This document shows, in pieces, positions 3,832 through 47,198 of a stretch of 64,000 nt of DNA. Position numbers and translations under genes: made by a program. Position 1 is the first letter of the stretch. Each line of letters opens with the position of its first letter. Below the pieces are notes generated by a model. That model made no database searches and was not told the origin of the DNA. It worked only from the letters and a program-made list of their open reading frames with translations. This DNA comes from Candidatus Omnitrophota bacterium (GTDB lineage Bacteria; Omnitrophota; Gorgyraeia; JACQQV01): positions 63,509-127,508 of the forward strand of contig JACQQV010000021.1 of the NCBI GenBank assembly GCA_016206785.1, given 5' to 3'.

Positions 3832-3842
3832 CTAAGGGGTAC

Positions 3843-4034
3843 CTAAGACGAGATCGCGCTGTTTCCCTGCGTTCTACTCCAACTTCGGCATCCATTTGCC
3901 CTACAGGTATTCGTACCGCTGTCAGAAGCAGAGGTCCCATTGGTGGCGCACTGAGAGAGGATCGCCTGTTCATGGTTTAACCGGATTCTAAAAATTTTCG
4001 GTGTTTCATACATCCTTTTCATTGTCTCTTCCAT
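3843..4034 (-). CDS. candidate RiPP precursor peptide, 63 aa (MEETMKRMYETPKIFRIRLNHEQAILSQCATNGTSASDSGTNTCRANGCRSWSRTQGNSAISS)
   Basis: A small ORF wedged between the rSAM gene (ends 4040) and the HprK-like gene (starts 3831). Minus-strand upstream sequence is gataAGAAGGAGGTaaagacaATG, a near-perfect Shine-Dalgarno about 7 nt before the ATG. The peptide has a charged leader-like N-terminus, then a Ser/Thr/Gly/Asn-rich segment with 3 Cys, and ends in Ser-Ser. Confidence 0.45.
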   Translation of the reverse strand: MEETMKRMYETPKIFRIRLNHEQAILSQCATNGTSASDSGTNTCRANGCRSWSRTQGNSAISS

Positions 4035-4039
4035 TGTCT

Positions 4040-6087: not shown

Positions 6088-6092
6088 CCGCT

Positions 6093-6395
6093 CTATTCTC
6101 CCTTTTCCGCACCCGCAAAATGTTTCGGCTCTATGAGTCCTTCCCTCCTCAGTTTTTTAAGGAAGGAAAGCACATCATGCTTCACCCTTTTGGGTTCTGC
6201 TTCGAAGTTTTGTTCAATGTGTGTGATAAGTTCCTGAACGGTTCTACTCCCGTCCAACGCCTCCCAGATCGCTGCGCCAACAGGAGTGAGTTTGAGGAGG
6301 TCTCCCTCATCCTGATCCACGAGGATCGCTTCTTCCTCTACCCGTCGCCAAGGAATTCTTCCATTCTTCTCGAAGATATCCGTAAGTCTAAACAT
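6093..6395 (-). CDS. PqqD-family (RRE-like) small protein, 100 aa
   Basis: MFRLTDIFEKNGRIPWRRVEEEAILVDQDEGDLLKLTPVGAAIWEALDGSRTVQELITHIEQNFEAEP... matches the PqqD/RRE pattern: P..R..GE..L......L.N..A..IW.L.DG..T..E. Confidence 0.65.
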   Translation of the reverse strand: MFRLTDIFEKNGRIPWRRVEEEAILVDQDEGDLLKLTPVGAAIWEALDGSRTVQELITHIEQNFEAEPKRVKHDVLSFLKKLRREGLIEPKHFAGAEKGE

Positions 6396-24549: not shown

Positions 24550-24584
24550 AGATGTCCCCCCATCTCTTTGAGAGTTAACCTGGA

Positions 24585-25988: not shown

Positions 25989-27291
25989 AAACCGTAGACT
26001 CCTTTGGAACCGCATAATTTAAGGGGAAATGGACGAGGAACGTGGCTCCCCGACGCTCTTCACTTTCCACCTCAATCCGCCCGCCGTAGGAGCGGACGAG
26101 CTCATAACAGATGGAAAGTCCCAGACCGCACCCTTTGTCGATCTCTTTCGTCGTAAAGAACGGATCGAAAATGAAGGGCCGATTCTCTTTTGAGATGCCA
26201 CATCCTGTATCCGAGATACGTACCGTGATTTCATGGTCGCTGCGAAGGGTTGCGATCCGAAGTGTCCCCCCGTGAGGCATCGCCTCCAGGGCATTCTTAA
26301 TGACATTGGTAAAGATCTGGTCGATCCCTTTGTCCAGGAGTAACGGAAGGGCGGGATGGTACGCTTTAATGACTTGAACCCTGGAAGTATAAAAGTAATC
26401 GTTCAGGTTGGAAAGGACATCTTCAAGAACTTCATTCACATCCACCGGATTCATCGTGACGCGCTGGCGACTGGAAAAGGTGAGGAGGTTTTTGACGATA
26501 TTCACCATCCGGGTAAGGCCCTGTTTCACCTCCAGGAGATATTCCCGGACCATGTCCCCTTCCTTCAGGTGATTGAGAGAGAGATGAATGTAGCGAAGGG
26601 TTCCGTCCAGAGGGTTGTTCAGTTCATGAGCGATCCCCGCCGCCAATTTTCCGATCGAGGCCATTTTCTGAGAAAGTTCAAGCTCTGTTCCCAGTTGACG
26701 CTTTTCCTCCATCAGAAGGAGGGCGGTCTTGCGGGCTTCCTCCGCGTCATGATGAGACTTCTTGGCTTCGGCACCCAGATGTATCCTTTCAATCCCTTCG
26801 GCCACGTAAGAGGCGAAAAGGGTCATCCACTCCAGATCTTTGGAGACAAAGGGACGCTTCGATTTTTTATCGGTGAGGTTCAAGATGCCTAACAATTTCC
26901 CTTGAAAGACGATGGGGACAGAAAGGAAGGAGGTGGTACGGTAATGGGAAAAGCCGTTCCCGTTTTGGAACCGGAAATCGTTACGGATATCCTCAACCAG
27001 AATGGGAGATTGCCGGCTTGCCACATATCCCAGGATCCCCTCATCGAGCTTGCGCCTCACCTCCGGAAAGTGGGAGAGATACTCTCCAGAGGCCCCTTTA
27101 AGGACCAACTCTTTCTTGTTTTCGTCGACGAGGAAAAGGGATCCGACCTCCGCTTGAACCAGGTTGAGCGCTTCCCTTAAGGAGGTGTCTAAAAGGGAAT
27201 TAAGGAATTTTGCAGTTTGAATTCGCTCCAAAGCGGCCCGGAAACGGAGAATCGGGTCGAGTGGTTTACGTCGAAAGGTATCAAGAAACAT
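25978..27291 (-). CDS. GAF-domain sensor histidine kinase (cytoplasmic), 437 aa
   Basis: N-terminal GAF, H-box HELNNPLDG, and HATPase_c (GGTLRI...DTGCGI...GLGLSI). Confidence 0.8.
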   Translation of the reverse strand: MFLDTFRRKPLDPILRFRAALERIQTAKFLNSLLDTSLREALNLVQAEVGSLFLVDENKKELVLKGASGEYLSHFPEVRRKLDEGILGYVASRQSPILVEDIRNDFRFQNGNGFSHYRTTSFLSVPIVFQGKLLGILNLTDKKSKRPFVSKDLEWMTLFASYVAEGIERIHLGAEAKKSHHDAEEARKTALLLMEEKRQLGTELELSQKMASIGKLAAGIAHELNNPLDGTLRYIHLSLNHLKEGDMVREYLLEVKQGLTRMVNIVKNLLTFSSRQRVTMNPVDVNEVLEDVLSNLNDYFYTSRVQVIKAYHPALPLLLDKGIDQIFTNVIKNALEAMPHGGTLRIATLRSDHEITVRISDTGCGISKENRPFIFDPFFTTKEIDKGCGLGLSICYELVRSYGGRIEVESEERRGATFLVHFPLNYAVPKESTVYAR

Positions 27292-33118: not shown

Positions 33119-33742
33119 TCAGGCGTGGGGTTCTTGGGTTAAGATCGGGAGAAGTTCTCCGATAAACCGTTTTGCTGTTATGAGGGATTCCTCTTCACTC
33201 TTTGAAATCGGAACGATGATCCGGACCATAGCCCCTCCCAATCCCTTACCGGTCGCTTGCTTCATGACCCACCGGATCTGCTGAGTGAAGTAATCATTGG
33301 TGAATTCCTTGCCCAACATGTACCAATAGAGAACGACGTTTTGGCTCTTTCCCTCTCCGGCAAGGAGTCGGTTTACCGTTAGGGTTTGACCGGGAAAGGA
33401 AAGACTCTCCTTCGTCGTCTTTGTGACAGAAACCCCGCTTCCAATCAGACAGACGACCGGAGGATGGCAGACACGGCGGTTGGTTTCGGAATAGATCACA
33501 AACAGATCAACGGATTCACCCTTTTTGTTTCGATACTGCCGCAGGGCCAAATTCCTTGTTTCAAGAATCTCGTAATCATGGTCGGAGACGGCGACGTCAC
33601 TTGCTTTCCATTCACCGATCTCCATCGGAATTTCGCGGATGTCCCGAATATCCTTCTCCACCCTCTGCATCTGGTAAAAGTGGAAGGAAATGGCACCGAC
33701 GATGACGAAAAGGAAACTGCTGACAACCCAATGCTTCTTCAT
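33119..33742 (-). CDS. EpsI-family exosortase-associated protein, 207 aa
   Basis: N-terminal TM helix. ...GESVDLFVIYSETNRRVCHPPVVCLIGSGVSV... matches the EpsI signature. It overlaps the exosortase gene stop by 4 nt. Confidence 0.7.
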   Translation of the reverse strand: MKKHWVVSSFLFVIVGAISFHFYQMQRVEKDIRDIREIPMEIGEWKASDVAVSDHDYEILETRNLALRQYRNKKGESVDLFVIYSETNRRVCHPPVVCLIGSGVSVTKTTKESLSFPGQTLTVNRLLAGEGKSQNVVLYWYMLGKEFTNDYFTQQIRWVMKQATGKGLGGAMVRIIVPISKSEEESLITAKRFIGELLPILTQEPHA

Positions 33743-34545
33743 CGGAGAATCCTTCCGACGGTGGAGAGGCCACCCAGTGCGAGTCCGAACACGACGAATC
33801 CGGAGAAATCATGAAAGAATTTGAGGGCCGCTTCAACGCCGTAGATATCGGCGATACCTGCAAGAAGGATGATGCGGACGATATTGGCAATCATGGCGAT
33901 CGGAATGGAAGAAAGGAAAAAGAGCGTTTTCCTCGGAAAAGAGGCCTGTTTGAGATACGCAAAAAGGACGCCGAGTGTCAGAAGCGACAAAAGCGACCGA
34001 AGGCCGCTACAGGGATCTTCCACCGCAACCACCGCATTTTTCATGTAGATCAGATGACCTTTTTGAAGAGCGGGAAACCCGATCGCATGAAGTACATGGG
34101 TCGCACACATCGCTGCGAAAAGTTTAAGACGCACCGTCGCCGTTCCAACGACCACGAGGGGAAACGGAACCATGAAAAGGAGAAAGATTATCGGAAAGGC
34201 CGCCGCCCGAAGCATCTTTTTCCCCCAGAGAAAAAGCACGAGTCCCGTGACGGTTAAGAGGATGGAGAAGGCCGAAGTGAAATAGACCTTGATCAAAGCA
34301 CTCACCAGATGGACCAAGAGTCCTGTGATCAGCAGAGGAAGGCCCCATCGGGAGGGCGAAGGAACGATAGTGGCGATCTCCTTCCGTTTACGCCAAACCA
34401 GATAAAGACTCACAAAGGGAATCAAGAATCCATGGCCGAAATAGGAATCTTTCGCGCTCCAACGGTCCACCATCCAGACAATCGTCGGGAAATAAGCGAA
34501 GGTGAGCAGAAGACTCATGACACCGAGTGAAATCCACTTTTTCAT
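33739..34545 (-). CDS. exosortase (EpsH/Xrt family)
   Basis: Polytopic membrane protein with the exosortase Cys motif AVEDPCSGLRSLLSLL and the Asn/Arg motif IANIVRIILLAGI. The likely start is MKKWISLGVMSLLLTF at about 34545. The track ORF's extra 24 N-terminal residues are translated from the upstream repeat region. Confidence 0.85.
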   Translation of the reverse strand: MKKWISLGVMSLLLTFAYFPTIVWMVDRWSAKDSYFGHGFLIPFVSLYLVWRKRKEIATIVPSPSRWGLPLLITGLLVHLVSALIKVYFTSAFSILLTVTGLVLFLWGKKMLRAAAFPIIFLLFMVPFPLVVVGTATVRLKLFAAMCATHVLHAIGFPALQKGHLIYMKNAVVAVEDPCSGLRSLLSLLTLGVLFAYLKQASFPRKTLFFLSSIPIAMIANIVRIILLAGIADIYGVEAALKFFHDFSGFVVFGLALGGLSTVGRILR

Positions 34546-34566
34546 AGGGCTGTCTTCCCGAAAAAT

Positions 34567-34694
34567 TCCAATAACCAAATCACAATGACCAAATAAGCTC
34601 CAATACCCAAATTCCAAACACCAAACCGAGGTTTAATTATTGGTGATTGGTTCTTGGTGATTATTTGGAACTTGGAATTTGGTGCTTGGTGATT
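34567..34694. repeat. imperfect palindrome built from degenerate heptad repeats: ACCAAAT-like units at 34567-34626, a central gaggtttaatta, then ATTTGGT/TTGGTGA-like units at 34639-34694
   Basis: Left arm is ccaataaccaaatcacaatgaccaaataagctccaatacccaaattccaaacaccaaacc. Right arm is ttggtgattggttcttggtgattatttggaacttggaatttggtgcttggtgattg. The arms are approximately reverse-complementary. The structure lies in the GT2-exosortase intergenic region. Confidence 0.6.
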
Positions 34695-34702
34695 GTTTCT
34701 CA

Positions 34703-35824
34703 TCATTGTGTTTTCCAAGTCACCTGCTGCTGTCGTGAAAGATAGCGATAAAGACCGACGAGGGCAGAGACATTTAAAAGACAGAAGACATACGGTTGAG
34801 AAAAAAGACGCCGTGCCTTTTGCGGTGCAACCGCTCCGAGAGTCGCACAGCCGTAAAAAGCGATCTGCAACATGAAAAAAATCCGGTAGAGGGGCTCATG
34901 GAGCAGGAAAAAATCGGATAAAAAGAGCGCGATCAAAAAGAAAGGCGCAAGAACCCTTAAGAGTTTGTGGGATATGAATTGAAGGGCGACGCGACTTCGG
35001 AAGGGATTGAGCATGGAAGAGAACTGCACAAAACTTTGATAATTCCCCGCCAGGGTTCTCACCTTCCGTTCATATTCCTGTCGTGGTGTGGAAGAGACAT
35101 CATCATACACCCATGCCCTTCCTTCAAAGAGGGTGCGGTATCCCTGAGAAACCACTTTCATCGGAAGATAAAGGTCGTCCAAGATCGTCTCTTCCGGCAT
35201 GGGATGATACAAAAGGCGGCGGATGGCATAGAGCGCTCCTGTGGCTCCGATCACAGAGCCCGCCTGACTCTCATGACCTCGGATGAATTTCTCATAGTTC
35301 CAATAGAATCCGAGTCCCTTCGCGACCGAGCCATTTGTTCCTTCAAGCACGAGTTCCCCACTGACACATCCCACCGCCGGGTCGCTGAAATTTCGAACCA
35401 AATGACGAATCGCCTGCCGATCGATCTTCTGTCGGGCGTCCGTAAAAACCAGAATCTCGCCTCTCGCCTGCTCAGCCAAGCCATTGAGCATCCGGGGTTT
35501 CCCCCCCCTTTCATTCAAAACGACAAGGCCAACCCTTTCCCCTTCGTACTGTGCCAAAATGCTTGCAGTATTGTCTGTGGAACCGTCGGAACCGACGAAG
35601 ATCTCAAGTTTATCCTCCGGATAGTCGAGGGAAAGAAGATTTTCCATTTTCTTGGCGATCACCTTCTCCTCATTAAAAGCAGAAAGAAGGACAGAGACAG
35701 AGGGTAAATGTTCTGAGGCCCGGACAGGACAAGGAAAGTACTTTGCCCAAATCCATAAAAGAAGCGGGTATCCTAAGTAAATATAAAAAAGTATCGTCGC
35801 TGAAACCCAGAAAAGAAAGGTCAT
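34703..35824 (-). CDS. family 2 glycosyltransferase (membrane-associated, cellulose-synthase-like), 373 aa
   Basis: Carries the GT2 motifs SVLLSAFNEE...DGSTD...VFTDA, with C-terminal TM segments. Confidence 0.8.
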   Translation of the reverse strand: MTFLFWVSATILFYIYLGYPLLLWIWAKYFPCPVRASEHLPSVSVLLSAFNEEKVIAKKMENLLSLDYPEDKLEIFVGSDGSTDNTASILAQYEGERVGLVVLNERGGKPRMLNGLAEQARGEILVFTDARQKIDRQAIRHLVRNFSDPAVGCVSGELVLEGTNGSVAKGLGFYWNYEKFIRGHESQAGSVIGATGALYAIRRLLYHPMPEETILDDLYLPMKVVSQGYRTLFEGRAWVYDDVSSTPRQEYERKVRTLAGNYQSFVQFSSMLNPFRSRVALQFISHKLLRVLAPFFLIALFLSDFFLLHEPLYRIFFMLQIAFYGCATLGAVAPQKARRLFSQPYVFCLLNVSALVGLYRYLSRQQQVTWKTQ

Positions 35825-35825: not shown

Positions 35826-36608
35826 CTATTTCTCCTTTACTGCCTTCCCTCGGACTCTTTCATAGAGGGTGTGGCCCAAGAGCCGATAGGCCGATTGCTT
35901 GACCAGATACTCAAAAACGAGATGACCCTTTGTACGCCCCTCTACGATAGAAATAAAATCATCAAGCGTGTAGGGCCGTTTGATGGTCCACCGCTTAAGA
36001 CGGAACGGATCTGCGTCTTGGCGATTCACGCCGATGTCGGAGGTGCAGGCGGCCCGATAGCCGACTCCTTTGACCGCTTCTAAGACGCGGTGGTTGTAAC
36101 GGCCGCGCGGGATTGAGAAAAAAGGAACCTCTTTTTTAAGAATCTCTTCCAGTCTCTTCTTGGATCGGGTCAGTTGATCATGAAGTTTTTGATCGTCGAG
36201 CCGCGTCAAGAAAATGTGGTCGAACCCATGGGAGCCAACTTCCATCCCTTCTCCATTCAACCGTCTAAGTTCATCCGTGGTTAGATGATCTTCGGTATTC
36301 AATGTCCCGGGATTCACGAAGAAGGTTGTAGTAAAGCCGTGACGTTTCAAAATCGGAAATGCAATGGAAAAGTCGCTTGAGAGGCCATCGTCAAAAGTGA
36401 TCACGATCGGTTTCTCAGGAAGCGGTTTGCCGGTGAGCCAGTTTACCAGTTCTCTTAAAGAGATGGAATGAAAGTTCCCCCTTGCAAGATAGGCCATCTG
36501 TGCCTCAAACTGCGCCTGGGTGAGTGTGTACAATCCATTCCCGGCGCTGTTTTCTTCCACCAAGCCATGATACGTCAAGATTGGAACTGACGGTGCGTTG
36601 CGTTTCAT
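35826..36608 (-). CDS. polysaccharide deacetylase (NodB-type)
   Basis: Carries VPILTYHG...ITFDDG...HGFDHI motifs. The likely start is MKRNAPSVPILTYHG at about 36608. The track ORF extends to 36683. Confidence 0.8.
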   Translation of the reverse strand: MKRNAPSVPILTYHGLVEENSAGNGLYTLTQAQFEAQMAYLARGNFHSISLRELVNWLTGKPLPEKPIVITFDDGLSSDFSIAFPILKRHGFTTTFFVNPGTLNTEDHLTTDELRRLNGEGMEVGSHGFDHIFLTRLDDQKLHDQLTRSKKRLEEILKKEVPFFSIPRGRYNHRVLEAVKGVGYRAACTSDIGVNRQDADPFRLKRWTIKRPYTLDDFISIVEGRTKGHLVFEYLVKQSAYRLLGHTLYERVRGKAVKEK

Positions 36609-37618
36609 CTGGGTCTCGGCAGACCCACCCCGAACAGAATGTGGGCGATGGTATTGACCATAAAGAAATCGATCTGGCCCCACTCACGCGCAAGCTGTGC
36701 CAAAGGAGCCGTGGATCGAAAAATGGCAAAGATGACAAGATTTCCGACGAGGACAAGCCAAAGAAACCCGATGGGAACGGTCGTCCCAAAACGCCAAAGA
36801 TCGGACCTCTTCCCCGCGAACTGTTGCGATGTCCTCCATTGCCCTGTCCGGCTCAGGAGCTTACGTGCATAGAAGACATACCAGATAATGTAGTGGTAGA
36901 TGACGATTAGCGCAAACCGTTCTGCAGAGGTGAATAGAGGTTCGCCAAATGGCTGCGCCAAACACAAACCGCCCAGAATGCCCACCGCGCTCCATCCAAA
37001 AAGTGAACGGGATGAACGGGGGGCAGGCAGGAGATAGTACCATCCGTACGCGATCCAGAGGACCGTCCAGAGGGCAGCCACAACCGGCAGCGCCCTATGC
37101 CACATATGATCTGCCATCGCCAACTGATCGATCAAGACCAGACCAACCGCCAGCGTCACCCAGAAGGTGCCACGTGTTGTCCAAGCGGCCGGCTGATACC
37201 CGTTTGCCGTCTGCTGCCTGAAAAGAACCTCGTTGGAGGCATGATGGGTCATAAACACCGCTTCGACGAATAGGAAATTTACCTGCGTGGGCAACCACCA
37301 TCTCAGCAAAGCGGCATAAGCGCCCATGACTGTGAGGAAGGCGGCAAGGTACCCGAAGGCGGCCGGCAGATTCCCATATCGTCGACAGACTAACCTCCAG
37401 GTGAAGATGTAGGCCAGGGTGAAATGTCCGTAGCCAAGAAAGTTGCGCATACGGATGATGTTCAGAAAGTGCAAGAGATTCGCACTCGCTGCCCACGCCA
37501 GCAAAAGAAACAGACACCCCATGGACCATGCCGTCACGCTTCCGTAATCGTAGAGTCCGGGGTGCGAGAGGCTGACTGATTGGGCAGAAAGAGTCACGCT
37601 GGACTGATGTTGTCTCAT
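36605..37618 (-). CDS. polytopic membrane protein, unknown function, 337 aa
   Basis: ORF track. At least 8 hydrophobic helices, rich in Trp/Tyr. Confidence 0.4.
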   Translation of the reverse strand: MRQHQSSVTLSAQSVSLSHPGLYDYGSVTAWSMGCLFLLLAWAASANLLHFLNIIRMRNFLGYGHFTLAYIFTWRLVCRRYGNLPAAFGYLAAFLTVMGAYAALLRWWLPTQVNFLFVEAVFMTHHASNEVLFRQQTANGYQPAAWTTRGTFWVTLAVGLVLIDQLAMADHMWHRALPVVAALWTVLWIAYGWYYLLPAPRSSRSLFGWSAVGILGGLCLAQPFGEPLFTSAERFALIVIYHYIIWYVFYARKLLSRTGQWRTSQQFAGKRSDLWRFGTTVPIGFLWLVLVGNLVIFAIFRSTAPLAQLAREWGQIDFFMVNTIAHILFGVGLPRPR

Positions 37619-40600
37619 TCTGCACCCTTTAACGATTCAATGGCCTGCGCGATCCGACCTCGTAACTCCAAGAGACCCTCCGGCTGTTTCGGGTATTCTC
37701 GCATCGAACGGGCAAGGGTCTCCGCATCATTTAACGCCGTCTCTGCCTGTTGAATGGTCTCTGCCAGGAGACTCCCCTTCGCTTTAGCCCTTGCAATCTT
37801 ATCCGACAGAATCGCAATCATGTCATAATCCTCCATCCCATCGCGTAGTAGTTCGAGACGGATGGAACCGACCGGACCCTCCGGGCCCGGATAGAAAAGA
37901 ACCCCATTGTCGTTCTGTTCCCACTTGGTGTTCTCCGGATTGGTGTAGGGGTTTACGGTCCAGAAGTTCACGCACCAATAGAGAAGCCCTGTCACTTTGT
38001 ACTTCCAGCACATCCAAGGAAGAATCCGGTAGGCCATCATCGGGTAATCGATCACAAAGGTCGGATAGGGATAGGAGGGACCTGAACAATAGATCCAAAG
38101 TTCCTTTCCCGCTTTTCTAATCTCTTCCGCCTGTGCGGGGTCGAAAGAGACGTTTCTAAGACAAACAATATCGATATCCTTAAACCAGTCCGCATATGAA
38201 GAGTACATCGGCGTTTCCATAAGAGTGACCATATTCCTCAGGAAAGGGCTTGCTTGATGAACCTTCTCTGCGACTCTCGCGACCTTCTCTGTACCGGCAG
38301 GAGATTCATCAGAGGTGTAAAGATAAGAGCGGTCGAGGAGATTGTGATCTCGTAAAATGGCGGCGTAGCTCTGATAAAGGGGGACAACGGGGGTAAGGTC
38401 TGCTGGCCAATTGTTTCCGCTGCTCCCACTATATTTTCCGATACCGAAAGAGGTCATTCCAAGATTCAAAAGGCGCTTGACTCGCTCAATACTTTCTGGT
38501 CTTGCCGGATCGATATTGAGGATCGGAGAAATCCGATAGCGAAGCATCCTCTCGTAATACCGGTCTTCCAATTGGGAAATAGATTCTCGCCACTTCGGCC
38601 ACCAATCGGGAAAGAAATTTTGATAACCGTCGACCAAACGACCCGTATAGAGGTCAAAAGCGGTCTTGAGGCGTGGGGTCTTCGGAAGTTCAAAGTCCCA
38701 AATGTGTACCTCAAGAGCTACTTTCTTCTGAGGACCATTTTTGGGTTGAATGAAAATTGATCCTTGATAAAGACCGGCCGGTGTCCCGGGGGGTGCGTAG
38801 ACGGTCACCCAAATCGGCTGAAGCTTCCCTCGCTTCACGTCAAAAGTTTCTTTTGAAGGAAGGGGATCGGGAACAAAGCCGATCAGTTCCGGGAGATACT
38901 GTGTTTTCCTGAGTTCAACATATCCGACCGGATAGGTCACGATTTCTTTTTTGTCAATCTTAGTGCCTGTCGTCGCATTCACAAGGTCTTCTGCCTGAAT
39001 CCGAACCTCTTTTAAATCCCCCGCGAGAGAAGAGAGAACGATCTGCGTCGATTCGTATTCGTTGGCAGCGAGGGAGAGTTGAATCGGATTGGCATGCCCA
39101 AGACCTTTGAATGGGGCATCTCTGAGAACCCTTTGGAATGGAGAAACAATTCGCACCTCGTAATCGAGGCCTTTGGCTTCGGACTTGGCAACGATTTCCT
39201 CTTCTTTCTTTTCATAGTAAGGTTTAAGAAAAGAGGGATTCCTGACACCGAGCAAATAAGGAACCGTGTAAAGAAGCGGGGGGACCCGATCATAAGTGAT
39301 TTTGCCGAAGACCATCCCGTTCCGGAGCGGATCTTCACTACGGTCCTGGGCCTGAATCTGCGCCATGAGTCGGCGACGGCCCTCTTCCATATATTTTGCC
39401 TCGCCGGTGAGTTCGTACGAATAAGCGAGCGCATCGAAGAAAGGAAGATACTTTTCGTTCTGAATCAAATAATCGGTCCCTTTTAGGATTGCCTCTTTGA
39501 CACGGGGATTACCCGTGAGACGATGATACGTGATGAGAGACGGAAGGGTATGAAGTGCCATAAATCGGCTATCCGATTCATCCGGCCAGCTGTCCGCGCG
39601 GGGGTTATAGTCTTTCGCCCAACTTCCGTCTTCTCGCTGGCCCTCCACAAAGAGAGCGGCCCACCGGTCAGCCGCTTCCTTATATCGCTTGTCGCGCGTT
39701 GCCTGATAAAGGAGGGTCTCACCCCAGAGGAGATTGGCAATCGCCCGTTGAGGGGCGATATCCGGATGTCGGGTATAGGTAATCGGGTTCTTGAGATAAA
39801 AACTTCCGACCTCTTTCGCCACATCAAAAGAGCGTTCATAACCGGTTAAATAATAATAGAGAAGAAAACCGAGGAGATGCGTATGGGAGGCCTCATCGGA
39901 GCGTCCTCCCCAATGGTTTGCGTTATGCCGGTGCATCGCTCCCACATGGCTATGGTCACTGTAGATTTTTCCCTTAAGCCGAGGATCCCTCTCAACCATG
40001 TCATAGTGGATGGTATCGACATCCATGATGTGACGGGAAGAGGCTTCCCCAAAAGCAAAATATTTGTAAAGGCCGGTCCTTGCAAATTGTAAAAGGGACG
40101 CTGCATGCGTTCCGACCTGTTCGCAGTTAAACCAACCCCATCGTCCCTCGGGATGCCAACCCCATTCCGGATAGGATTTATCATAGGCATCTTTGCGATA
40201 CCAGAAACGGGTGTCTCCATAATCGAGCATCCCGTACCAGCCGAACGCCTTCGGCTGTCGCGCCGCCCAATCAAAAAGACGGGCGATGAGTTCCTCCCCT
40301 TCCACAGAAACTTGGTGAGGGCCGAGAGATCCGAGCGCGTAACTGACGTACACCCACTCGGGGTCTGCGTGAAGAATCGGTGGATGCTGAAAAGCACTCA
40401 GCGTCTGATGAAGGGTTTGGGGTTCCGCAACACCTGAATGAAAGGAGAAAATAAGTTCATGAGTCTTACCGAGTCCGAAGGCGGAACCGCGTGCGACCGC
40501 ATCGGGCCCATAGGCCGCATCCTGTGTTTCGAGATTGAGTGGACCTGCCGAACGAGGCCAGAGAGAGATCTTGATTTTCCCTGCAACATCCACAAGGATC

Positions 40601-42384
40601 TCCTTGGGATATTGCTGCCAGAAATCTCTGACAAAAACCGAAGTCCCTGAGGAAAGGGACGAAAGATTCACCCACCCGGACGCCTCTTTCCCTTCATGAA
40701 TCACATCCGTTCCTTGCGAAAGACGGAAAAGATCCTGCTTGGGCTGGGAAAGGAGCAAAGGTCCTTTCATCTTCCCAACGAGAACCTGCGTGGGAAGACC
40801 GACCTGATAGGCGGTCTCTTTCTGGGTAGGAGAGGAATGCTCCATCGCAATCTCTTCAATCGTTTCGTTCTCAGGGAGACCTTTGACATCTTTATATTCA
40901 TGATGGTAGATATTTTCAGGATAGCCGGTATAAATAAAGGTGTGATAGACGCGAACGTCGCTTTTCCCTGCAAAGGCCTGGATCCGAACGTTATACTGAC
41001 AGAATTTCTTTCCTTCTGCGTTCCGAAACCAACCACTCGCCTTGAGGGTTACCCGCAGAGGTCCTCGCTCTTCAAGCTTTAGAGAGTACTCTTCCGCATC
41101 CAAGGAAGAGCGGTACTCGCTTCCTCGAAAACGGATCACAAGGTCTCCTCCCCCATCGGCTACCTTTTCATCCTCTAAAAATTGTTTATCACCGTTTAAA
41201 TCCAAAAAGGCCTTTTGGAAAAGGGTAAAATTCTTTTTGCTCACGGAAAATTGCAGAGGACCTGTCGTGATTGTGACTGAGGAGGGATCTTCTGAAATAC
41301 GAAGAGGACTCTCTGGTTCAGTGGGCGGGGGTGTTTGATGAATTTCAAGGAAAAGTTTTTTGTCTGCCGTCCCCTGAGGAAGCTGCGTATCTACAAGAAG
41401 CCACTGGATGGAACCATCTTCCCAAAATCCCAGAGGACGGATTTGAAGCGGAAGTTCCTCCCCCTCCGCCGTCATGAGTCGGAAAGAAGTCGTGCTACTT
41501 AAAAGTCCATAAGGAAATGGAACCCCCCCAGAGACTGGAAATCTGTCAGGAAGCGTAGCGGTGAGGCTCGCAACTTTGATGGGAACTTGCAAGAATGTCT
41601 CTCCGCTTGTCTTGGAAACGGCCTGCCATTTCTTCGCGACCTGTTGAAACAGGAGACCGCTCACGACATTCGGAGAGTTTGCAGTGATGGACCCACCAAA
41701 CGGCTCTTTCTCTGAGGCCGCCACAGGAGTTTGTGGTTCAGGAGCGCCCTCGAGTTCCGGAGAAAGACGAGATTCCTCTTGTCGAGCCTTTTTCTCCTTC
41801 GGGATCAGCTTAACGTCGTCGAGGAAAAAGATCGCGGCCGTTTTTGGATTCCAGCGGAAAAAATTAAGTTGGACGATCTCTTTCAGATCGACAAAAGAAG
41901 CGATATCTTCAAGAGGAACCCTGTAAGAAAGAGAGTTGTTCGCCGGGATGTACATATCCTCTTTATAACGGCGGTCCTTTCTATCCTTAATCTGAAGGAT
42001 GAGACGCTGCTGGGAAGACCCGGGATTAAACAATGTGAAGACAAGGGTTTCATAACCCCGCCAGTCCCTCGCCTTTTTGTTCTTCTCGAAGAAGTCTTCC
42101 ATCATAAAAGTGGGGTTCTGATCCCCCCCATAGGTGAGCTTGGCGGAATGCCTACCGCGGGCAACATGTTCATCGGAAAGAAATGCAGAAACGTTTGTCG
42201 CTTCCCATCGTTCCAAATCTTTTTCGGACTCAAAGTCGCCAAGCATGAGTTCGCCGGAGGCGAAAATGAACTCTTCCTTTGACCTTCTTCCCTCCCCTTG
42301 ACCCTTTTCATGAGACCTGGATAGAAACTGCCCTATCGCGATTCCGAGGAGGAGAATTGCTCCAATCTGAAACCATTTTTTCAC
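37615..42384 (-). CDS. giant secreted multidomain protein (1589 aa) with a central alpha/alpha-toroid-like (glycosidase/lyase-like) region and a C-terminal DUF4091/GH123-like domain
   Basis: The N-terminus is signal/TM-like: MKKWFQIGAILLLGIAIGQFL. The central region carries W/Y-rich repeats: ...WYGMLDYGDTRFWYRKDAYDKSYPEWGWHPEGRWGWFNCEQ... The C-terminus ...ELWIYCSGPSYPYPTFVIDYPMMAYRILPWMCWKYKVTGLLYWCVNFW... resembles DUF4091-type glycoside-hydrolase domains. Confidence 0.65.
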   Translation of the reverse strand: MKKWFQIGAILLLGIAIGQFLSRSHEKGQGEGRRSKEEFIFASGELMLGDFESEKDLERWEATNVSAFLSDEHVARGRHSAKLTYGGDQNPTFMMEDFFEKNKKARDWRGYETLVFTLFNPGSSQQRLILQIKDRKDRRYKEDMYIPANNSLSYRVPLEDIASFVDLKEIVQLNFFRWNPKTAAIFFLDDVKLIPKEKKARQEESRLSPELEGAPEPQTPVAASEKEPFGGSITANSPNVVSGLLFQQVAKKWQAVSKTSGETFLQVPIKVASLTATLPDRFPVSGGVPFPYGLLSSTTSFRLMTAEGEELPLQIRPLGFWEDGSIQWLLVDTQLPQGTADKKLFLEIHQTPPPTEPESPLRISEDPSSVTITTGPLQFSVSKKNFTLFQKAFLDLNGDKQFLEDEKVADGGGDLVIRFRGSEYRSSLDAEEYSLKLEERGPLRVTLKASGWFRNAEGKKFCQYNVRIQAFAGKSDVRVYHTFIYTGYPENIYHHEYKDVKGLPENETIEEIAMEHSSPTQKETAYQVGLPTQVLVGKMKGPLLLSQPKQDLFRLSQGTDVIHEGKEASGWVNLSSLSSGTSVFVRDFWQQYPKEILVDVAGKIKISLWPRSAGPLNLETQDAAYGPDAVARGSAFGLGKTHELIFSFHSGVAEPQTLHQTLSAFQHPPILHADPEWVYVSYALGSLGPHQVSVEGEELIARLFDWAARQPKAFGWYGMLDYGDTRFWYRKDAYDKSYPEWGWHPEGRWGWFNCEQVGTHAASLLQFARTGLYKYFAFGEASSRHIMDVDTIHYDMVERDPRLKGKIYSDHSHVGAMHRHNANHWGGRSDEASHTHLLGFLLYYYLTGYERSFDVAKEVGSFYLKNPITYTRHPDIAPQRAIANLLWGETLLYQATRDKRYKEAADRWAALFVEGQREDGSWAKDYNPRADSWPDESDSRFMALHTLPSLITYHRLTGNPRVKEAILKGTDYLIQNEKYLPFFDALAYSYELTGEAKYMEEGRRRLMAQIQAQDRSEDPLRNGMVFGKITYDRVPPLLYTVPYLLGVRNPSFLKPYYEKKEEEIVAKSEAKGLDYEVRIVSPFQRVLRDAPFKGLGHANPIQLSLAANEYESTQIVLSSLAGDLKEVRIQAEDLVNATTGTKIDKKEIVTYPVGYVELRKTQYLPELIGFVPDPLPSKETFDVKRGKLQPIWVTVYAPPGTPAGLYQGSIFIQPKNGPQKKVALEVHIWDFELPKTPRLKTAFDLYTGRLVDGYQNFFPDWWPKWRESISQLEDRYYERMLRYRISPILNIDPARPESIERVKRLLNLGMTSFGIGKYSGSSGNNWPADLTPVVPLYQSYAAILRDHNLLDRSYLYTSDESPAGTEKVARVAEKVHQASPFLRNMVTLMETPMYSSYADWFKDIDIVCLRNVSFDPAQAEEIRKAGKELWIYCSGPSYPYPTFVIDYPMMAYRILPWMCWKYKVTGLLYWCVNFWTVNPYTNPENTKWEQNDNGVLFYPGPEGPVGSIRLELLRDGMEDYDMIAILSDKIARAKAKGSLLAETIQQAETALNDAETLARSMREYPKQPEGLLELRGRIAQAIESLKGAE

Positions 42385-43505
42385 GAAGAAATTCCTTTCG
42401 CTTGCAATAAGCGTTCATAGAGTGCTTCTGTCTTTTCAACCATCCGTTCTACCGTGAATGCTTTCGTAATAGACTCGCGCGCCTTCTGTCCGATCTCCGC
42501 AACTCTTCTTGGATCCTGAAGGAGAGAAGAAAGTGCCTCAACCAATTCATCGGTTTGCCCATGGCGGACCAGAATGCCGGTCTCGCCGTCTTGGACCACC
42601 TCGGGTGTCCCACCCACGCGTGTGGCAACCACACATTTTCCCGCTGCCATCGCCTCTAAAACAACATTGGGACAGCCCTCATATCGTGATGGCAAAATGA
42701 AAAGATCGATTCCCGCCAGAAGTTCAGGAATGTCTGAACGGGCACCAAGCCATCTGAGATGCGTTGCAATGCCCAATTCTTCTCCAAGACGGACAAGAGA
42801 AGTATACAAAGGCCCGTCACCGATTAAAAGGAGATAAGGCTTTACGTTCTTTTTGAAGAGTTGGGACGCCGCTTGAAGGAGGGTGCGGTGATCCTTTTCA
42901 GGACCGAGGCGCCCGACCGTTCCCAAAACGAAAGCGTCTTCCGGAATCTCAAGGGATTTCCGAAGATGACCATTCTGCATGGGGTAAGGAAAACGACCGA
43001 GATCCACGCCATTATGAATGGTATAAATCTTAGAAATTTTAATCTTTTCCCGGGCGGCCAGAATTTCTCCGATGCAAGAGGCGTTCCCTATGACCGCATC
43101 GCACCACCTTCCCAAGTAGCGGTCTACAAGAATATAGCGCTGCTTCTTATCCGGTTCGGTACTCCGTACGGAACTGATGAGCATTGGAACTCCGGCCATT
43201 CTTGCGGCAAGCCTTCCGTAAAAGTCGGCTGTAAAAAGATAAGTGTGAACAATCGTCGGAGAGAACTGGCGGAGGGCCTTCCAAAGTTTAAAGAGCACCG
43301 GAAACGAGATCTTCCCCCGCTGGTCGAAGAGAATGACAGAAAGACCGGCTTTTTCAAAGGCGTCTTTCAGAGCAATCTTTTTTTCGGAAAGAGCATAGAG
43401 GACCGGTTGGAAACGTCGCCGATCGAGCCGCTTCACCAGTTCCAAGAGTTGGCGCTGGGCCCCTCCCAATCCCAAGTCATCGATCACAAACGCAATCTTT
43501 ACCAT
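42381..43505 (-). CDS. GT4 (GT-B) glycosyltransferase, 374 aa
   Basis: N-terminus MVKIAFVIDDLGLGGAQRQLLELVKRL. C-terminal EX7E-like region LPSRYEGCPNVVLEAMAAGKCVVAT. Confidence 0.8.
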   Translation of the reverse strand: MVKIAFVIDDLGLGGAQRQLLELVKRLDRRRFQPVLYALSEKKIALKDAFEKAGLSVILFDQRGKISFPVLFKLWKALRQFSPTIVHTYLFTADFYGRLAARMAGVPMLISSVRSTEPDKKQRYILVDRYLGRWCDAVIGNASCIGEILAAREKIKISKIYTIHNGVDLGRFPYPMQNGHLRKSLEIPEDAFVLGTVGRLGPEKDHRTLLQAASQLFKKNVKPYLLLIGDGPLYTSLVRLGEELGIATHLRWLGARSDIPELLAGIDLFILPSRYEGCPNVVLEAMAAGKCVVATRVGGTPEVVQDGETGILVRHGQTDELVEALSSLLQDPRRVAEIGQKARESITKAFTVERMVEKTEALYERLLQAKGISS

Positions 43506-44890
43506 TGGAGCGCTACCTCTTTGAATCCTTCTCTGTTTCTCATCTTAACCCACGCCGTCCCCTTCCCTTCGACCCTGACTCTGGGATCCCCATCGAACGG
43601 GGATTCAATGACAACGTGTCTCAAGAAGCCACGAAGTTCCTCTACCGATCCTTCTTTGAATTGGAAATGTCCTTCCGTATCGCCGACAGAGACGACCTCG
43701 ATCCGTTCTGAACTATACGTGATCAGTTGATAAGGAACATTCGCGAGGATCTTCTGATTCGCATAAGGTGGAATGACGAAGTTCCGGTAGTCATTTGGAT
43801 TCCCGGAGCGCCCGGCCTCGGCCGCCTTGAGAATGTTGTAAGCCTCTCGCGCCGTAGCATAATGGAGCCGGTATCGTTTCCCGTCGTTATACTTTTTCTC
43901 CAACGTCTCATACATCTTCTCGGCCCCCTTCCCTAAAAGGGGTTCATGGTCTCTGGCGATCGCCCCATGGGTAAAAACCTTCACAAAAATCCACTCGGGC
44001 CGACCTTTCACATGGATCGCTGTCCTCATCCAGCGGTCGATCCGTTTTGACGTTGGAAGATCCCAAACGGTTACATCCCCATGGTCATAGCGGAGCCTTC
44101 CTTTCTCAAAGGAAAGGATGCTCGGGCCTTCAAAGATAAGAAGGTCGCCCCACGCTTCACCTTCTGCCTGTACGATTTGACCTTTGTCGTATGATTTGGG
44201 ATGTGACGGATCATCCTTTGCGTAATAGAGACTGTTCGTGAGCGTCGGATTCATCGTCCCCCAGGATGAATGCGTAAAATCTGCGTAGCAGCCGGTCTTG
44301 CGCAGAATCTCCAGTTCATTGTTGACTCCACAAAACTGCCCCTCTCTCGAATTGTCCAGCGCCCACATCCCATGGATAAAGGCATACATCGTCTTGGGTT
44401 TTTCTTCTGCCGTAATAAATGCCCCCGTCACCTGTGAAAGTTTGATCCGTCTTTGAAGTTCACGGGTCACCGTGAGAGGTGTGTCGTTGTTGTGATGGAG
44501 ATGGAGTTCCACCTCCCCATACCCCTCATAAGCAAGTTTTGCAAGTCTCGTGAGATTTCGAAGGGTCACATCCCCCCTGTCATCGGCCCAATACCAGAAA
44601 AAGGTGTGTTGCGGTTTCCTTCCATCCGCATCCCGGTGGCGGTCTGCGAGGCGTCGGTACATCTTCTCCCATCGTTCAACAGCAGCGATGTGGTGTGGTT
44701 CAAAGTGGTCGACGAAAACGAAAACAATGTCTACGGGTTGCTTTGAGGAAAAGGAGGGATCTTTCTGAAAAATTTGTTGAGCCAACAAACCGGGAAGCCA
44801 CGGCTTTGTCCGATGAACATAGAAGCCGATCCCGCTTGCGGCCAAAAGAAATAAAACGACAATCAGTTTTCGTAACGTACTCTTACGCAT
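43499..44890 (-). CDS. conserved hypothetical protein with N-terminal TM anchor (unassigned family)
   Basis: ORF track. The TM segment is LIVVLFLLAASGIGFY, followed by a His-rich motif VFVFVDHFEPHH...HLHHNN. The likely start is MRKSTLRKL at about 44890. The track ORF extends to 45010. Confidence 0.45.
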   Translation of the reverse strand: MRKSTLRKLIVVLFLLAASGIGFYVHRTKPWLPGLLAQQIFQKDPSFSSKQPVDIVFVFVDHFEPHHIAAVERWEKMYRRLADRHRDADGRKPQHTFFWYWADDRGDVTLRNLTRLAKLAYEGYGEVELHLHHNNDTPLTVTRELQRRIKLSQVTGAFITAEEKPKTMYAFIHGMWALDNSREGQFCGVNNELEILRKTGCYADFTHSSWGTMNPTLTNSLYYAKDDPSHPKSYDKGQIVQAEGEAWGDLLIFEGPSILSFEKGRLRYDHGDVTVWDLPTSKRIDRWMRTAIHVKGRPEWIFVKVFTHGAIARDHEPLLGKGAEKMYETLEKKYNDGKRYRLHYATAREAYNILKAAEAGRSGNPNDYRNFVIPPYANQKILANVPYQLITYSSERIEVVSVGDTEGHFQFKEGSVEELRGFLRHVVIESPFDGDPRVRVEGKGTAWVKMRNREGFKEVALQW

Positions 44891-47198
44891 CGTGAAGAAG
44901 TTCCTCATAAAGTTTTTCGGTATCGCGAAGGAGTTTTTCCCTCGAATAGTGCGAAAGGACGGTCTTTCGCGCCTCTTTCCCGATCCGTTTCGCTTCCTCC
45001 GGGTGATCAAGGAGATAGGCGATCTTTCCGGAGAGGGCCTTGACGTCTCCTACAGAAATTAAAAAGCCGTTTTGGCCGTCCTGGATCAGGCGCGCATGGT
45101 CTCCTACACGTGAAACAATAACCGGCAGTTCAGTGGCCATCGCTTCAAGGACCGCCAGGGAAAGGGCTTCTCGTGAAGAAGTAAGCACAAAGAGGTCGGC
45201 ACTTCGATAGATCCCTTCGACATTTTCTCTTTCTCCTAAGAATTGAACCCGCCCATCGAGACCCAACCTCGCCTTCAATCTCAAGAGTTCCTCCCTCTCC
45301 TGTCCCTCTCCAACCAATATCAAGTTTAAATCAGTCCTTGCAAGTGACGGCTCTTTAAGTGCCTTTAAAAAAATATCGTGCCGTTTCTCAGGAGCCAGCC
45401 GCCCGATACTCAGGGCAATTTTCTTTTCAACAGAGAAACCAAGTTCTTTGCGCCACCTCAGGCAATCCGGATCGGGTTTAAAACGTTCGGTGTCGATCCC
45501 ATTTGGAATGACAGTACATTTCCGTTCGGCGACGCTCGTGACCTTGCAAAATTCTTGCCGGACCATCTCGGCAACAAAAATGATTTTATGACAAAGAAGC
45601 GAAAGAACCTTATCGGCGAAACGATGGAGCGGCCCTCGCCATTCCTGAATGCCATGTTCTGTTGCGATGCGGACCGGCACACCGGCCAACCACGCTGCAA
45701 TCCTTCCCCAGACATTGGCTCCCCAAAGATGGGTATGCACGATTTGAACTTTTTCTTTCCGCATGAGTGTCACAAGTTTCGGAATCACGGAAAAATCGAG
45801 GCCGCTCCGTTTGTGAAGTGCCACGACCGGAATCCCCGAGGGGATGAGCCGTTCGGCGAGCGAACCGGGATGATTGAGGCAGCAGATGAGAGGATCAAAA
45901 CGCCTCCGATCCAGTCCTTCTGCCAGAGACACCACCAGACCCTCAGCCCCTCCCATCTCAAGCGACCAGATCACGTAAAGAATTTTGATCTTCCCGGTTT
46001 TTTCTTCAAAGAGACGCGATAACGCCTTAAGATGGAGGTCCGAATTAAATTTCTCCGATACCGTGCGGTGCGCTTCTTCCCCATAACGGTTCGCCAACGG
46101 AGGGTCCTTCAGTATCGTTTCAATGGCCCCTGCGAGTGCCGCGGGATTTTTTTCTGGGACAAGGAGGCCGTTTCTCCCTGAAGTCACCGCTTCAGGAATG
46201 CCGGAAATCTCCGTGGAAACGACAGGAATTCCGACAGCCATCGCTTCCAAGAGAACGTTCGGGATGCCGTCCCGGTCTCCACTCGGAGCGATCTCAGACG
46301 GAAGCACGAAACAGGCGGCCTTTCGATAATAATCCAGAAGTTCTTCTCTTGAGAGAGAACCGGCCAACCGGACAACATGCTCCAATTGTTCTTCCTTAAT
46401 TTCCTCTTCCAGTTTGCTACGCAAGGGTCCCTCTCCGACAATGACGCACTCAAAGGAGAACCTTTTTGCTTTAAGAAGAGAAAGCGATCGAATCAACGTG
46501 AAAAATCCTTTTGTTTCCACAACTCTTCCGACCGAAAGAATGAGCGGTGTACCCTCTTTCCGAAGGGGCTCCCTTTTCTGAAAGCGGTTTAAGTCCACAC
46601 CATGATAATTGAGAAAGATCTTTTGTTCGCATCCCGGCGATGTTGTAGAAAGGAACTTCCGGTTATGCTCTGTACAGGTCACAACAAACTCGGCTTCCTC
46701 GAGTTTCTCTTTGAGTGTGGGATTCCCCACATAAAGATCCCACGCGTGCCCTGTGAAACTGAAAGGAAGGTTGAGGAGTCTCGCCATCATCCTTGCCGAA
46801 GTTGTTGGAAAGGTCGCCCAATGGGAATGGAGATGACCGATTCTCATCCCTTTAGCGCGATGTACCAAGGCGAGTGTTTTTACATACACGACGAGCACTT
46901 TTAAGAAAGAGACGAAATCTTTTCCATCCGCCATCATTTCTCCCAGGGCTTCGATGGACCTCATCGGTTGTCTGAGGAACTCGAGCAGTCCCTCTCCCCA
47001 CACCGTGGGTGAGGAGAGAGGGGCATACTCTACCCAATGAAGAAGTGACCCAACCTCGGGGTGGATGATCCGATCGCGGCACTTCTTTAGTGAAAAAATC
47101 CGCAACTCGACCCCTACTTCCCGCAAGGCGAGAAACTCCTTCAAGATAAAGGTTTCGTGCAACTCTGGAAATTGGCTCACAACAATGCCGAGTTTCAT
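44883..47198 (-). CDS. tandem double GT4 glycosyltransferase fusion, 771 aa
   Basis: Two complete GT-B/GT4 modules, each with a Gly-rich N-terminus (…KILYVIWSLEMGGAEGLVVSLA…) and an E-x7-E C-terminal motif (…LPSEIAPSGDRDGIPNVLLEAMAVGIPVVST…; …VLTSSREALSLAVLEAMATELPVIVS…). Confidence 0.8.
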   Translation of the reverse strand: MKLGIVVSQFPELHETFILKEFLALREVGVELRIFSLKKCRDRIIHPEVGSLLHWVEYAPLSSPTVWGEGLLEFLRQPMRSIEALGEMMADGKDFVSFLKVLVVYVKTLALVHRAKGMRIGHLHSHWATFPTTSARMMARLLNLPFSFTGHAWDLYVGNPTLKEKLEEAEFVVTCTEHNRKFLSTTSPGCEQKIFLNYHGVDLNRFQKREPLRKEGTPLILSVGRVVETKGFFTLIRSLSLLKAKRFSFECVIVGEGPLRSKLEEEIKEEQLEHVVRLAGSLSREELLDYYRKAACFVLPSEIAPSGDRDGIPNVLLEAMAVGIPVVSTEISGIPEAVTSGRNGLLVPEKNPAALAGAIETILKDPPLANRYGEEAHRTVSEKFNSDLHLKALSRLFEEKTGKIKILYVIWSLEMGGAEGLVVSLAEGLDRRRFDPLICCLNHPGSLAERLIPSGIPVVALHKRSGLDFSVIPKLVTLMRKEKVQIVHTHLWGANVWGRIAAWLAGVPVRIATEHGIQEWRGPLHRFADKVLSLLCHKIIFVAEMVRQEFCKVTSVAERKCTVIPNGIDTERFKPDPDCLRWRKELGFSVEKKIALSIGRLAPEKRHDIFLKALKEPSLARTDLNLILVGEGQEREELLRLKARLGLDGRVQFLGERENVEGIYRSADLFVLTSSREALSLAVLEAMATELPVIVSRVGDHARLIQDGQNGFLISVGDVKALSGKIAYLLDHPEEAKRIGKEARKTVLSHYSREKLLRDTEKLYEELLHDA

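Follow-up and report, generated by a model that had tools for sequence, protein, structure and literature searches.

The longest open reading frame (ORF) of a 64,000-nucleotide (64-kb) stretch of Candidatus Omnitrophota DNA (contig JACQQV010000021.1, positions 63,509 to 127,508; hereafter the window) encodes a protein of 1589 aa that is built, from N- to C-terminus, of a hydrophobic anchor, a CBM11-like carbohydrate-binding domain, a module resembling PcRGLX of polysaccharide lyase family PL26 and a module of glycoside hydrolase family GH123. The gene (37615..42384, GTG start, 1589 codons) lies on the minus strand, to which the coordinates given below for its domains and neighbours also refer. 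The PL26-like module is the common occupant, or conserved core, of a gene slot that recurs in the exopolysaccharide (EPS) loci of related genomes, and the GH123 module is an add-on or alternative in the same slot. Judging from sequence features and this context, we consider the protein to be probably an extracytoplasmic, membrane-tethered, two-headed glycan-cleaving enzyme that would act on the EPS of its own locus.

The GTG start codon and the TGA stop of the GT4 glycosyltransferase gene upstream overlap (GTGA), an AGGA lying about 10 nt before the start, and the TGA stop overlaps the ATG of the downstream gene (ATGA); these overlaps indicate that the gene is part of an operon and translationally coupled to both of its neighbours. 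Searches of public metagenomes returned one identical protein (P0001) and 14 full-length homologues of 41-71% identity, several of them labelled Candidatus Omnitrophota, and because such full-length homologues occur in other metagenomes, the gene is not a chance ORF. Five Pfam domain models beat their curated cut-offs on the protein, namely the three PcRGLX-like domains, the GH123 N-domain and GH123_cat/DUF4091, and an NCBIfam scan of the whole protein gave no match. AlphaFold models were made from homologue alignments as two halves, aa 1-1060 (mean predicted local distance difference test score (pLDDT) 82.8, predicted template modelling score (pTM) 0.76; aa 22-40, aa 198-235 and the loop aa 725-750 disordered) and aa 1061-1589 (pLDDT 94.7, pTM 0.93).

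At the N-terminus, the hydrophobic segment aa 4-22 (MKKWFQIGAILLLGIAIGQFL; 42319..42375), directly after MKK, is the only 19-mer of the protein with a mean Kyte-Doolittle hydropathy above 1.6; it is a helix in the model and is predicted to be a signal anchor or signal peptide. The MK(K/R) start followed by a hydrophobic stretch is common to all 15 fused homologues, and by hydropathy the protein is better read as membrane-anchored and extracytoplasmic than as freely secreted. Next comes the CBM11-like beta-sandwich (aa ~45-195; 41800..42252), with sub-threshold Pfam matches to CBM11 and Agarase-CBM at aa 44-162 (CBM_11, 13.7 bits against a cut-off of 27). This domain is 17-20% identical to the CBM11 of Clostridium thermocellum Lic26A-Cel5E (PDB 6R31/1V0A), unlike which it adjoins a membrane anchor and leads either catalytic module. 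A CBM-like leader is present in 31 of 120 GH123-only relatives, and the leader studied here shares 41% identity with that of P0050, a GH123-only protein. A disordered Pro/Glu-rich linker (aa ~198-235; 41680..41793; pLDDT <50) connects the leader to the rest of the protein.

The GH123 and PL26-like modules

The catalytic domain model GH123_cat (PF13320, the same as DUF4091) matches aa 1338-1526 with E=6.8e-23 (82 bits against a cut-off of 23.1), and the GH123 N-domain (aa ~1098-1230) is matched by both PF22680 (E=1.5e-9, 38.3 bits against 27) and PF19543 (E=6.6e-8, 31.3 bits against 22). When the PDB was searched with phmmer, aa 1071-1527 aligned to residues 9-470 of NgaCa (8K2F) at E=4.6e-29 without large insertions. 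Foldseek with the C-terminal half likewise returned 8K2F as the best match (E=1.2e-39, TM-score 0.82), and the top 22 PDB matches were all GH123-type enzymes (TM-score 0.65-0.82). The module comprises an N-terminal beta-sandwich (aa ~1075-1232; 38689..39162), defined by PF22680, PF19543 and the strands of the model and holding D1173 and W1192, and a (beta/alpha)8 catalytic domain that includes DUF4091 (aa ~1240-1527; 37804..38667), defined by PF13320, phmmer, the model and Foldseek. It ends in a helical extension (aa ~1528-1589; 37618..37803) modelled as three long helices.

Enzymes of GH123 act by retaining, substrate-assisted catalysis, in which an Asp stabilises the 2-acetamido group and a Glu is the acid/base (PMC11087588). 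The DE motif D1359-E1360 (YLYTSDESP; 38305..38310) aligns with the DE of NgaCa (YNYTADEIG) and with that of NgaDssm; all 15 fused homologues have it, as do 44 of the 45 aligned relatives. Nine residues are strictly conserved in all GH123 groups, in NgaLy D95, W115, D327, E328, Y392, G427, W431, Y466 and R478 (PMC11087588). Their counterparts, placed via the NgaCa alignment plus order and spacing and not by alignment to NgaLy, are D1173, W1192, D1359, E1360, Y1432, G1466, W1470, Y1498 and R1509, each invariant across the 15 fused homologues; W197 of NgaCa probably corresponds to Y1246. Since domain scores, fold, the DE pair and the nine residues agree, the GH123 head, as aligned and modelled, fits the expanded GH123 family in every sequence and fold feature.

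NgaCa from Cohnella abietis is an oligosaccharide-releasing beta-N-acetylgalactosaminidase of GH123 Group 1 (PDB 8K2F/8K2G; PMC11087588). Like NgaCa, the GH123 head combines a beta-sandwich with a (beta/alpha)8 domain and, as aligned to it, is free of the insertions of Groups 2-4 and of classical GH123; NgaCa is the head's best match in both sequence and structure and has the DE pair and the nine residues in common with it, yet is only 26% identical. NgaCa is a free-standing 516-aa protein of Bacillota, whereas the module described here is the C-terminal head of a 1589-aa anchored EPS-operon fusion and carries an extra helical tail of ~60 aa. Group 1 enzymes, whose natural substrate is unknown, have been suggested to act inside longer chains, and EPS repeat units have been suggested as that substrate (PMC11087588).

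The middle of the protein, ~800 aa (aa ~254-1046), has the three-domain architecture of PcRGLX, an exo-rhamnogalacturonan lyase of Penicillium chrysogenum (5XQ3/5XQO) and the only characterised member of PL26, a family of more than 1600 sequences (PMC10461819). The first domain, a RIFT barrel (aa ~263-348; 41341..41598), matches PF19501 with E=4.9e-10; the central beta-sandwich (aa ~362-650; 40435..41301), strand-rich in the model, matches PF21345 with E=3.9e-16; and an alpha/alpha toroid follows at aa ~655-1046 (39247..40422). The Pfam match ranges are aa 283-329 for PcRGLX_1st, aa 362-489 for PcRGLX_2nd and aa 668-859 for PcRGLX_3rd. The toroid also gave sub-threshold Pfam matches to GH88 and GH127, and a fold search with the toroid alone found it similar to the (alpha/alpha)6 enzymes of GH105, GH88 and GH76. 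Single-sequence phmmer against the PDB detected the GH123 part only and not PcRGLX; a profile of 26 sequences matched PcRGLX (5XQ3) with E=9e-75. On this profile evidence the module is a genuine PL26 homologue, at 16-19% identity to PcRGLX.

A putative active-site polar cluster (aa 716-825; 39910..40239) is matched to PcRGLX in the profile alignment. It reads WYGMLDYGD, N753-x-E755, R769, H785, D790, H793, R819, H820, H824 and W825, for which PcRGLX has WYGFLDYGD, NSE, RTG, RH..VDVYH and RHGVQHW, so that WYG(M/F)LDYGD, N-x-E, RTG, RH..D-x-x-H and RH...HW are common to both. Conservation was scored over PcRGLX together with 24 members of the clade and 29 distant relatives, of which 27 came from genome loci and the other two are P0040 and P0042. 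The protein keeps all superfamily-wide residues, namely W321, D323, S325, W328, R467, D724, N753, E755, R769, H785, D790, H793, R819, H820, H824 and R851. The polar cluster is conserved across the 24 members of the clade and, among 30 distant relatives, in 80-97%. Nearly all of its residues are invariant in the fused homologues, of which there are 15; two of these have Gly for N753.

Comparison of the PcRGLX substrate complex 5XQO with 5XQ3 revealed a Tyr-to-Phe change in LEITYEDWEP, at about chain residue 437, and from this difference between the chains the Tyr is presumed to be catalytic. Where the alignments reach this Tyr loop, the module carries a clade-specific replacement, the invariant A631-R632-G-S-A-F-G637 (40474..40494). 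An alternative register puts Y624 at the Tyr position, but Y624 varies. R632, K640 and H642 are invariant in the Omnitrophota clade. Among distant PcRGLX-like relatives the Tyr position is W, H, Y, another residue or absent, and the Pfam 'PcRGLX-like' superfamily is therefore probably functionally heterogeneous. Taken together, the conserved residues suggest that the PL26-like module is probably catalytic, acting either as a lyase by beta-elimination or by hydrolysis. PcRGLX serves fungal pectin degradation, in contrast to the bacterial biosynthetic EPS locus that surrounds this module, and given that context, exo-rhamnogalacturonan lyase activity (EC 4.2.2.24) is unlikely.

These results bear on a first-pass annotation of the window, which had described the product of its largest gene as a secreted multidomain enzyme with a signal or transmembrane N-terminus, putative carbohydrate-binding beta regions, an alpha/alpha-toroid-like core and a DUF4091/GH123-like C-terminal domain. 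The size and all four features were recovered, as the 1589-aa ORF, the segment aa 4-22, the CBM11-like domain, the PcRGLX-like toroid and the domain matched by PF13320 and, in phmmer and Foldseek, by 8K2F. Both sequences it had quoted for a Trp/Cys-rich motif lie in that domain, YCSGPSYPYPTFVIDYP spanning aa 1432-1448 and WMCWKYKVTGLLYWCVNFW aa 1457-1475, and the catalytic acid/base it had proposed to look for would be E1360 of the D1359-E1360 pair. CAZy-family similarity, which it had made the test of an enzymatic role, is present for two catalytic segments and the CBM, and no adhesin-type repeats were seen. As for 'secreted', hydropathy favours a membrane-anchored, probably extracytoplasmic protein. 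As to enzyme identity, the GH123 call stands, but the PL26 homology of the middle ~800 aa, the very module that is the conserved slot occupant, had been missed, and the closeness of the GH123 head to the cleft-type, oligosaccharide-releasing Group 1 had not been recognised.

A conserved slot in related genomes

To place the gene among its relatives, 37 species-representative loci of the Omnitrophota type were compared, 27 of which were assessable, with at least 2 kb of sequence downstream of the PL26-like module. The order GT4, X, (small ORFs), CE4, GT2, EpsH, EpsI, Bac_transf and PEP-CTERM genes recurs among homologue loci, and the slot X within GT4-X-CE4-GT2-EpsH is found in Omnitrophota-type loci at 35-72% identity. 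X is the PL26-like/GH123 fusion in the window and in loci L001, L002 and L023. The commonest form, a CBM-like plus PL26-like protein alone, occupies it in L003-L006, and a GH123 protein alone does so in L007, with the same leader domain, and in L008. In L043 the slot holds two adjacent genes, one for a transmembrane segment plus PL26-like module (955 aa) and the next for a transmembrane segment, CBM-like domain and GH123 module (759 aa). A CE4 gene lies downstream of the homologue in 25 of the 27 assessable loci, and a GH123 module directly follows the PL26-like module in seven. This occupancy pattern points to the PL26-like and GH123 modules as functionally linked partners of the CE4/GT2 pair. 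The first-pass proposal that the gene is co-transcribed with glycosyltransferases and deacetylases agrees with the overlapping start and stop codons and with this conserved synteny.

Three loci deserve separate mention. The fused protein of L002 (10001-15670; P0011), like P0012 and P0013, is ~1890 aa long and has an extra N-terminal Metallophos domain (PF00149) of calcineurin-like phosphoesterases, and such fusions are potentially three-activity enzymes in the same slot. L009 was dropped as a case of a split gene: its PL26-like and GH123 frames meet with a one-base offset at a (CCGAACT)x3 repeat (1660-1740 of JAUYQF010000120.1), and the frame change that joins the two ORFs there is probably a frameshift or assembly error. 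The repeat is either an assembly error or a slippage-prone site at which the GH123 head could be turned on or off. The closest genome match, L010 (CAMTXJ010000007.1; 72% identity, genes in the same order), carries the label 'Candidatus Peregrinibacteria', against Omnitrophota for nearly all other relatives, and its label is probably a binning or taxonomy error.

The surrounding EPS locus

Approximately 40 kb around the gene, all on a single strand, form an exosortase/PEP-CTERM EPS locus. Besides EpsI, the XrtA-like exosortase EpsH, a priming sugar transferase (Bac_transf) and three PEP-CTERM proteins, the locus encodes several GT4 enzymes including stp2-like ones, a Wzy/O-antigen-ligase-like protein, two further GT2 enzymes and a methyltransferase. 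On the regulatory side it encodes a sigma-54 activator, a GAF histidine kinase and a TPR protein; rpoN lies close by on the other strand. The hallmarks of such loci are therefore present, namely EpsH, EpsI, PEP-CTERM proteins, the priming transferase and a sigma-54 two-component regulator.

Immediately upstream of the gene lies the GT4 glycosyltransferase (stp2/TIGR03088-like; 42381..43505), whose stop overlaps its start, and immediately downstream a 337-aa multi-transmembrane protein (36605..37618), whose start overlaps its stop. The latter has at least four hydrophobic segments and no family match; most other loci lack it, and it was found only in L001 and L010, the closest relatives. It is followed by a CE4 polysaccharide deacetylase (35826..36608; PF01522, E=9e-28). 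As listed, the CE4 ORF (35826-36683, GTG start) overlaps the preceding gene by 79 nt; the actual start is probably M26 of that ORF (nt 36608), which gives an ATGA overlap with the preceding gene. The next genes encode a membrane-embedded, GT21-like GT2 (34703..35824) with three predicted transmembrane segments, one N-terminal and two C-terminal, and then EpsH (XrtA-like) and EpsI (33119..34617).

The best NCBIfam match of the CE4 is the PgaB deacetylase domain and that of the GT2 is PgaC/IcaA (1.2e-20), both far below cut-off, and the QxxRW motif is absent from the GT2 at 34703..35824. With PgaC and PgaB matches of this kind and a GT2 without QxxRW, the CE4/GT2 sub-cluster was not called a poly-N-acetylglucosamine (PNAG) system. 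The two CE4 domains, the GNAT domains and the best matches to PgaC and PgaB suggest that the polymer of the locus likely contains N-acetylhexosamine (HexNAc).

Several other parts of the window were noted in passing. Between 44883 and 53665 on the minus strand lie a double GT4 (771 aa), a GNAT-GNAT-GT4 (913 aa) and a GT4-CE4 deacetylase (716 aa), and this EPS locus seems generally prone to gene fusion, beyond the gene studied here. A 1356-aa protein of the locus (57497-61567, minus strand) contains a polysaccharide pyruvyl transferase domain at residues 530-826, which by its family would imply a pyruvylated EPS; Pfam matches none of its other ~1000 residues. Two genes upstream of the GH123 fusion, a 503-aa protein with one predicted transmembrane segment and no Pfam or NCBIfam match (43499-45010, minus strand) is kept at the same position in L001, L007, L010, L012, L026, L029, L030 and L033 at 47-69% identity. 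At the end of the EPS locus (22190-27291), rpoN is divergent beside the sigma-54 activator/response regulator, the GAF histidine kinase and the TPR protein, a PrsK/PrsR/PrsT-like set typical of PEP-CTERM systems. Three consecutive radical-SAM genes with a P-loop-like ORF and a TPR/UPF0489 protein (1845-7947, minus strand) are apparently unrelated to EPS and may form a small peptide- or cofactor-modification cluster.

Proposed action and its alternatives

We propose that the anchor keeps the protein on the outer face of the cytoplasmic membrane, the site of Wzy-type polymerisation, where the CBM-like domain would bind the nascent EPS chain. The GH123 head would hydrolyse beta-linked N-acetylgalactosamine (GalNAc) or N-acetylglucosamine (GlcNAc) bonds by retaining, substrate-assisted catalysis via an oxazolinium intermediate, with D1359 orienting the 2-acetamido group and E1360 as acid/base, and would probably cut inside the chain or release oligosaccharides, like the cleft-type Group 1 enzyme NgaCa. 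Because a substrate-assisted GH123 enzyme cuts only N-acetylated residues, the deacetylases of the locus would define which stretches are cleavable and which protected. The PL26-like head would cleave a second type of linkage. Overall the enzyme would control the chain length of the EPS, release it or see to its quality, as is documented or proposed for PgaB-GH153, PslG, BcsZ, AlgL and Sph3, with PelA as a further parallel. The trimming or release of EPS that had been suggested in the first-pass annotation gains support from the motifs, the operon membership and the conserved slot.

Operon-encoded EPS glycanases include the C-terminal GH153 domain of PgaB, PelA, PslG, BcsZ, AlgL and Sph3/Ega3. 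Dispersin B, a GH20 PNAG hydrolase, has a (beta/alpha)8 fold and works by substrate-assisted catalysis through an Asp-Glu pair; it serves dispersal as a secreted enzyme encoded outside the biosynthetic operon, belongs to a different CAZy family and is a mechanistic analogue of the proposed action of the GH123 head on a beta-HexNAc EPS. Glycan-cleaving enzymes within EPS biosynthesis operons have been described as an emerging trend (PMC5933820). Like PgaB, PelA and the others, the protein is encoded within a synthesis operon, is presumably co-expressed with the synthesis genes, is predicted by hydropathy to be extracytoplasmic, is paired with a CE4 as PgaB and PelA are, and would presumably act on a self-made polymer. 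It differs from them in having no sequence or fold relation to GH153, GH166, GH39, GH8 or PL5, in belonging to a Wzy/exosortase-type locus and not to a classical synthase-dependent system, and in carrying two cleaving modules on one polypeptide, in a slot whose occupant alternates between genomes.

A number of points weigh against the proposed action on self-made EPS. The Tyr loop of PcRGLX, sought by alignment, is absent from the Omnitrophota clade, which has a shorter, invariant ARGSAFG instead. No UDP-sugar dehydrogenase, the source of uronic acids, was found among the ORFs of the 64-kb window, which hence offers no local evidence for a uronic-acid substrate. The Group 1 placement of the GH123 head is a best-hit ranking by sequence and fold at only 26% identity, GalNAc versus GlcNAc specificity is not readable from sequence, and the Group 1 enzyme NgaMg was inactive on every tested substrate (PMC11087588). 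Membrane topology was taken from hydropathy alone, and EPS composition from the genes alone. The CE4, finally, has no N-terminal hydrophobic segment or signal sequence with either start and may be cytoplasmic, acting on lipid-linked units as annotated for HfsH, in which case its link to the enzyme would be indirect.

The first two of these points would also suit a protein in which only the GH123 head is catalytic and the PcRGLX-like module is a glycan-binding domain or scaffold, as was once thought of PgaB's C-terminal domain: the loop that bears the Tyr-to-Phe change in 5XQO is shortened and replaced, and no uronic-acid-forming enzyme was found among the window ORFs. We regard this as rather unlikely, since all superfamily-wide polar residues are kept and nearly all are invariant across the clade, the invariant R632, K640 and H642 suit an altered active site better than a decayed one, and the PL26-like protein is the sole glycanase-like gene of the slot in most loci. 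The same residues enter a bolder possibility, conceivable if unlikely, that the PcRGLX-like module has a new specificity and possibly a new chemistry, with an R632/K640/H642 loop in place of the PL26 Tyr loop, and that the protein is a two-headed editor following the N-acetylation pattern left by the CE4 deacetylases. The GH123 head would then cut still-acetylated beta-HexNAc and the PL26-like head deacetylated, pyruvylated or otherwise modified residues, a pairing comparable to that of Sph3 and Ega3 in fungal galactosaminogalactan.

The GH123 and PL26 enzymes characterised so far are catabolic, and distant PL26-like relatives (25-31% identity) occur in Bacteroidota, Latescibacterota and Planctomycetota, in which polysaccharide degradation is common; both facts would fit an enzyme aimed at foreign glycans, for foraging or for attack on a host or prey surface, and merely co-located with EPS genes. 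Such a target is likewise rather unlikely for a gene that is translationally coupled to biosynthetic genes on both sides, in a slot kept across dozens of divergent loci whose only common genes are those of EPS biosynthesis; in the window its flanks have no transporter, SusC/D or sugar-catabolism genes, and by hydropathy the protein is membrane-tethered and not freely secreted. Transglycosylation through the oxazolinium intermediate is possible for substrate-assisted, retaining enzymes of the hexosaminidase type, and the GH123 head might instead be mainly a transglycosylase that joins EPS to another chain, a lipid anchor or the exosortase-processed PEP-CTERM proteins, for attachment or cross-linking of the matrix and not its degradation. 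The locus has both an exosortase and several PEP-CTERM proteins, and the tether would put the enzyme where coupling would happen; however, the GH123 literature searched contained no dedicated GH123 transglycosylase, and many exosortase/PEP-CTERM loci lack a GH123 module, which makes this role very improbable. A non-enzymatic surface adhesin or structural protein, which size, the N-terminal anchor and the beta-rich N-terminal part might recall, is hardly credible: no internal repeats or adhesin-type domains were seen, and ~1250 of the 1589 residues form two enzyme folds with intact catalytic motifs, on which grounds this reading was rejected.

Both catalytic families, the CBM fold and the theme of glycanases in EPS operons are already known. 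What appears to be new is the fusion and the swappable slot of PL26-like and Group-1-like GH123 modules in Omnitrophota exosortase EPS loci, together with the altered loop of the PL26-like clade and the testable hypothesis that self-made EPS is the natural substrate of these poorly understood enzymes. No description of the PL26-like/GH123 fusion or of the slot was found in the searchable literature, which is weak evidence of novelty as the library was incomplete. Read in the ordinary way, as a cleaver of its own locus's polymer, the protein is another EPS-operon glycanase, helpful for annotation and unsurprising, and enzymes of this kind are candidate matrix-degrading reagents. The genomic context offers a testable candidate substrate for Group 1 of GH123, the EPS of the neighbouring locus, and a PL26 clade whose active-site loop is altered and which is fixed in an EPS biosynthesis locus suggests that the family has a second function beyond pectin. 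If the two heads do divide acetylated and modified residues between them, self-made EPS would be the long-sought substrate of Group 1 GH123 enzymes and the PL26-like superfamily would gain that second function. We know of almost no experimental glycobiology in Omnitrophota, and the states of the slot, with either head alone, both as separate genes or both fused, form a natural experiment whose comparison could link the type of glycanase to polymer chemistry in this phylum.

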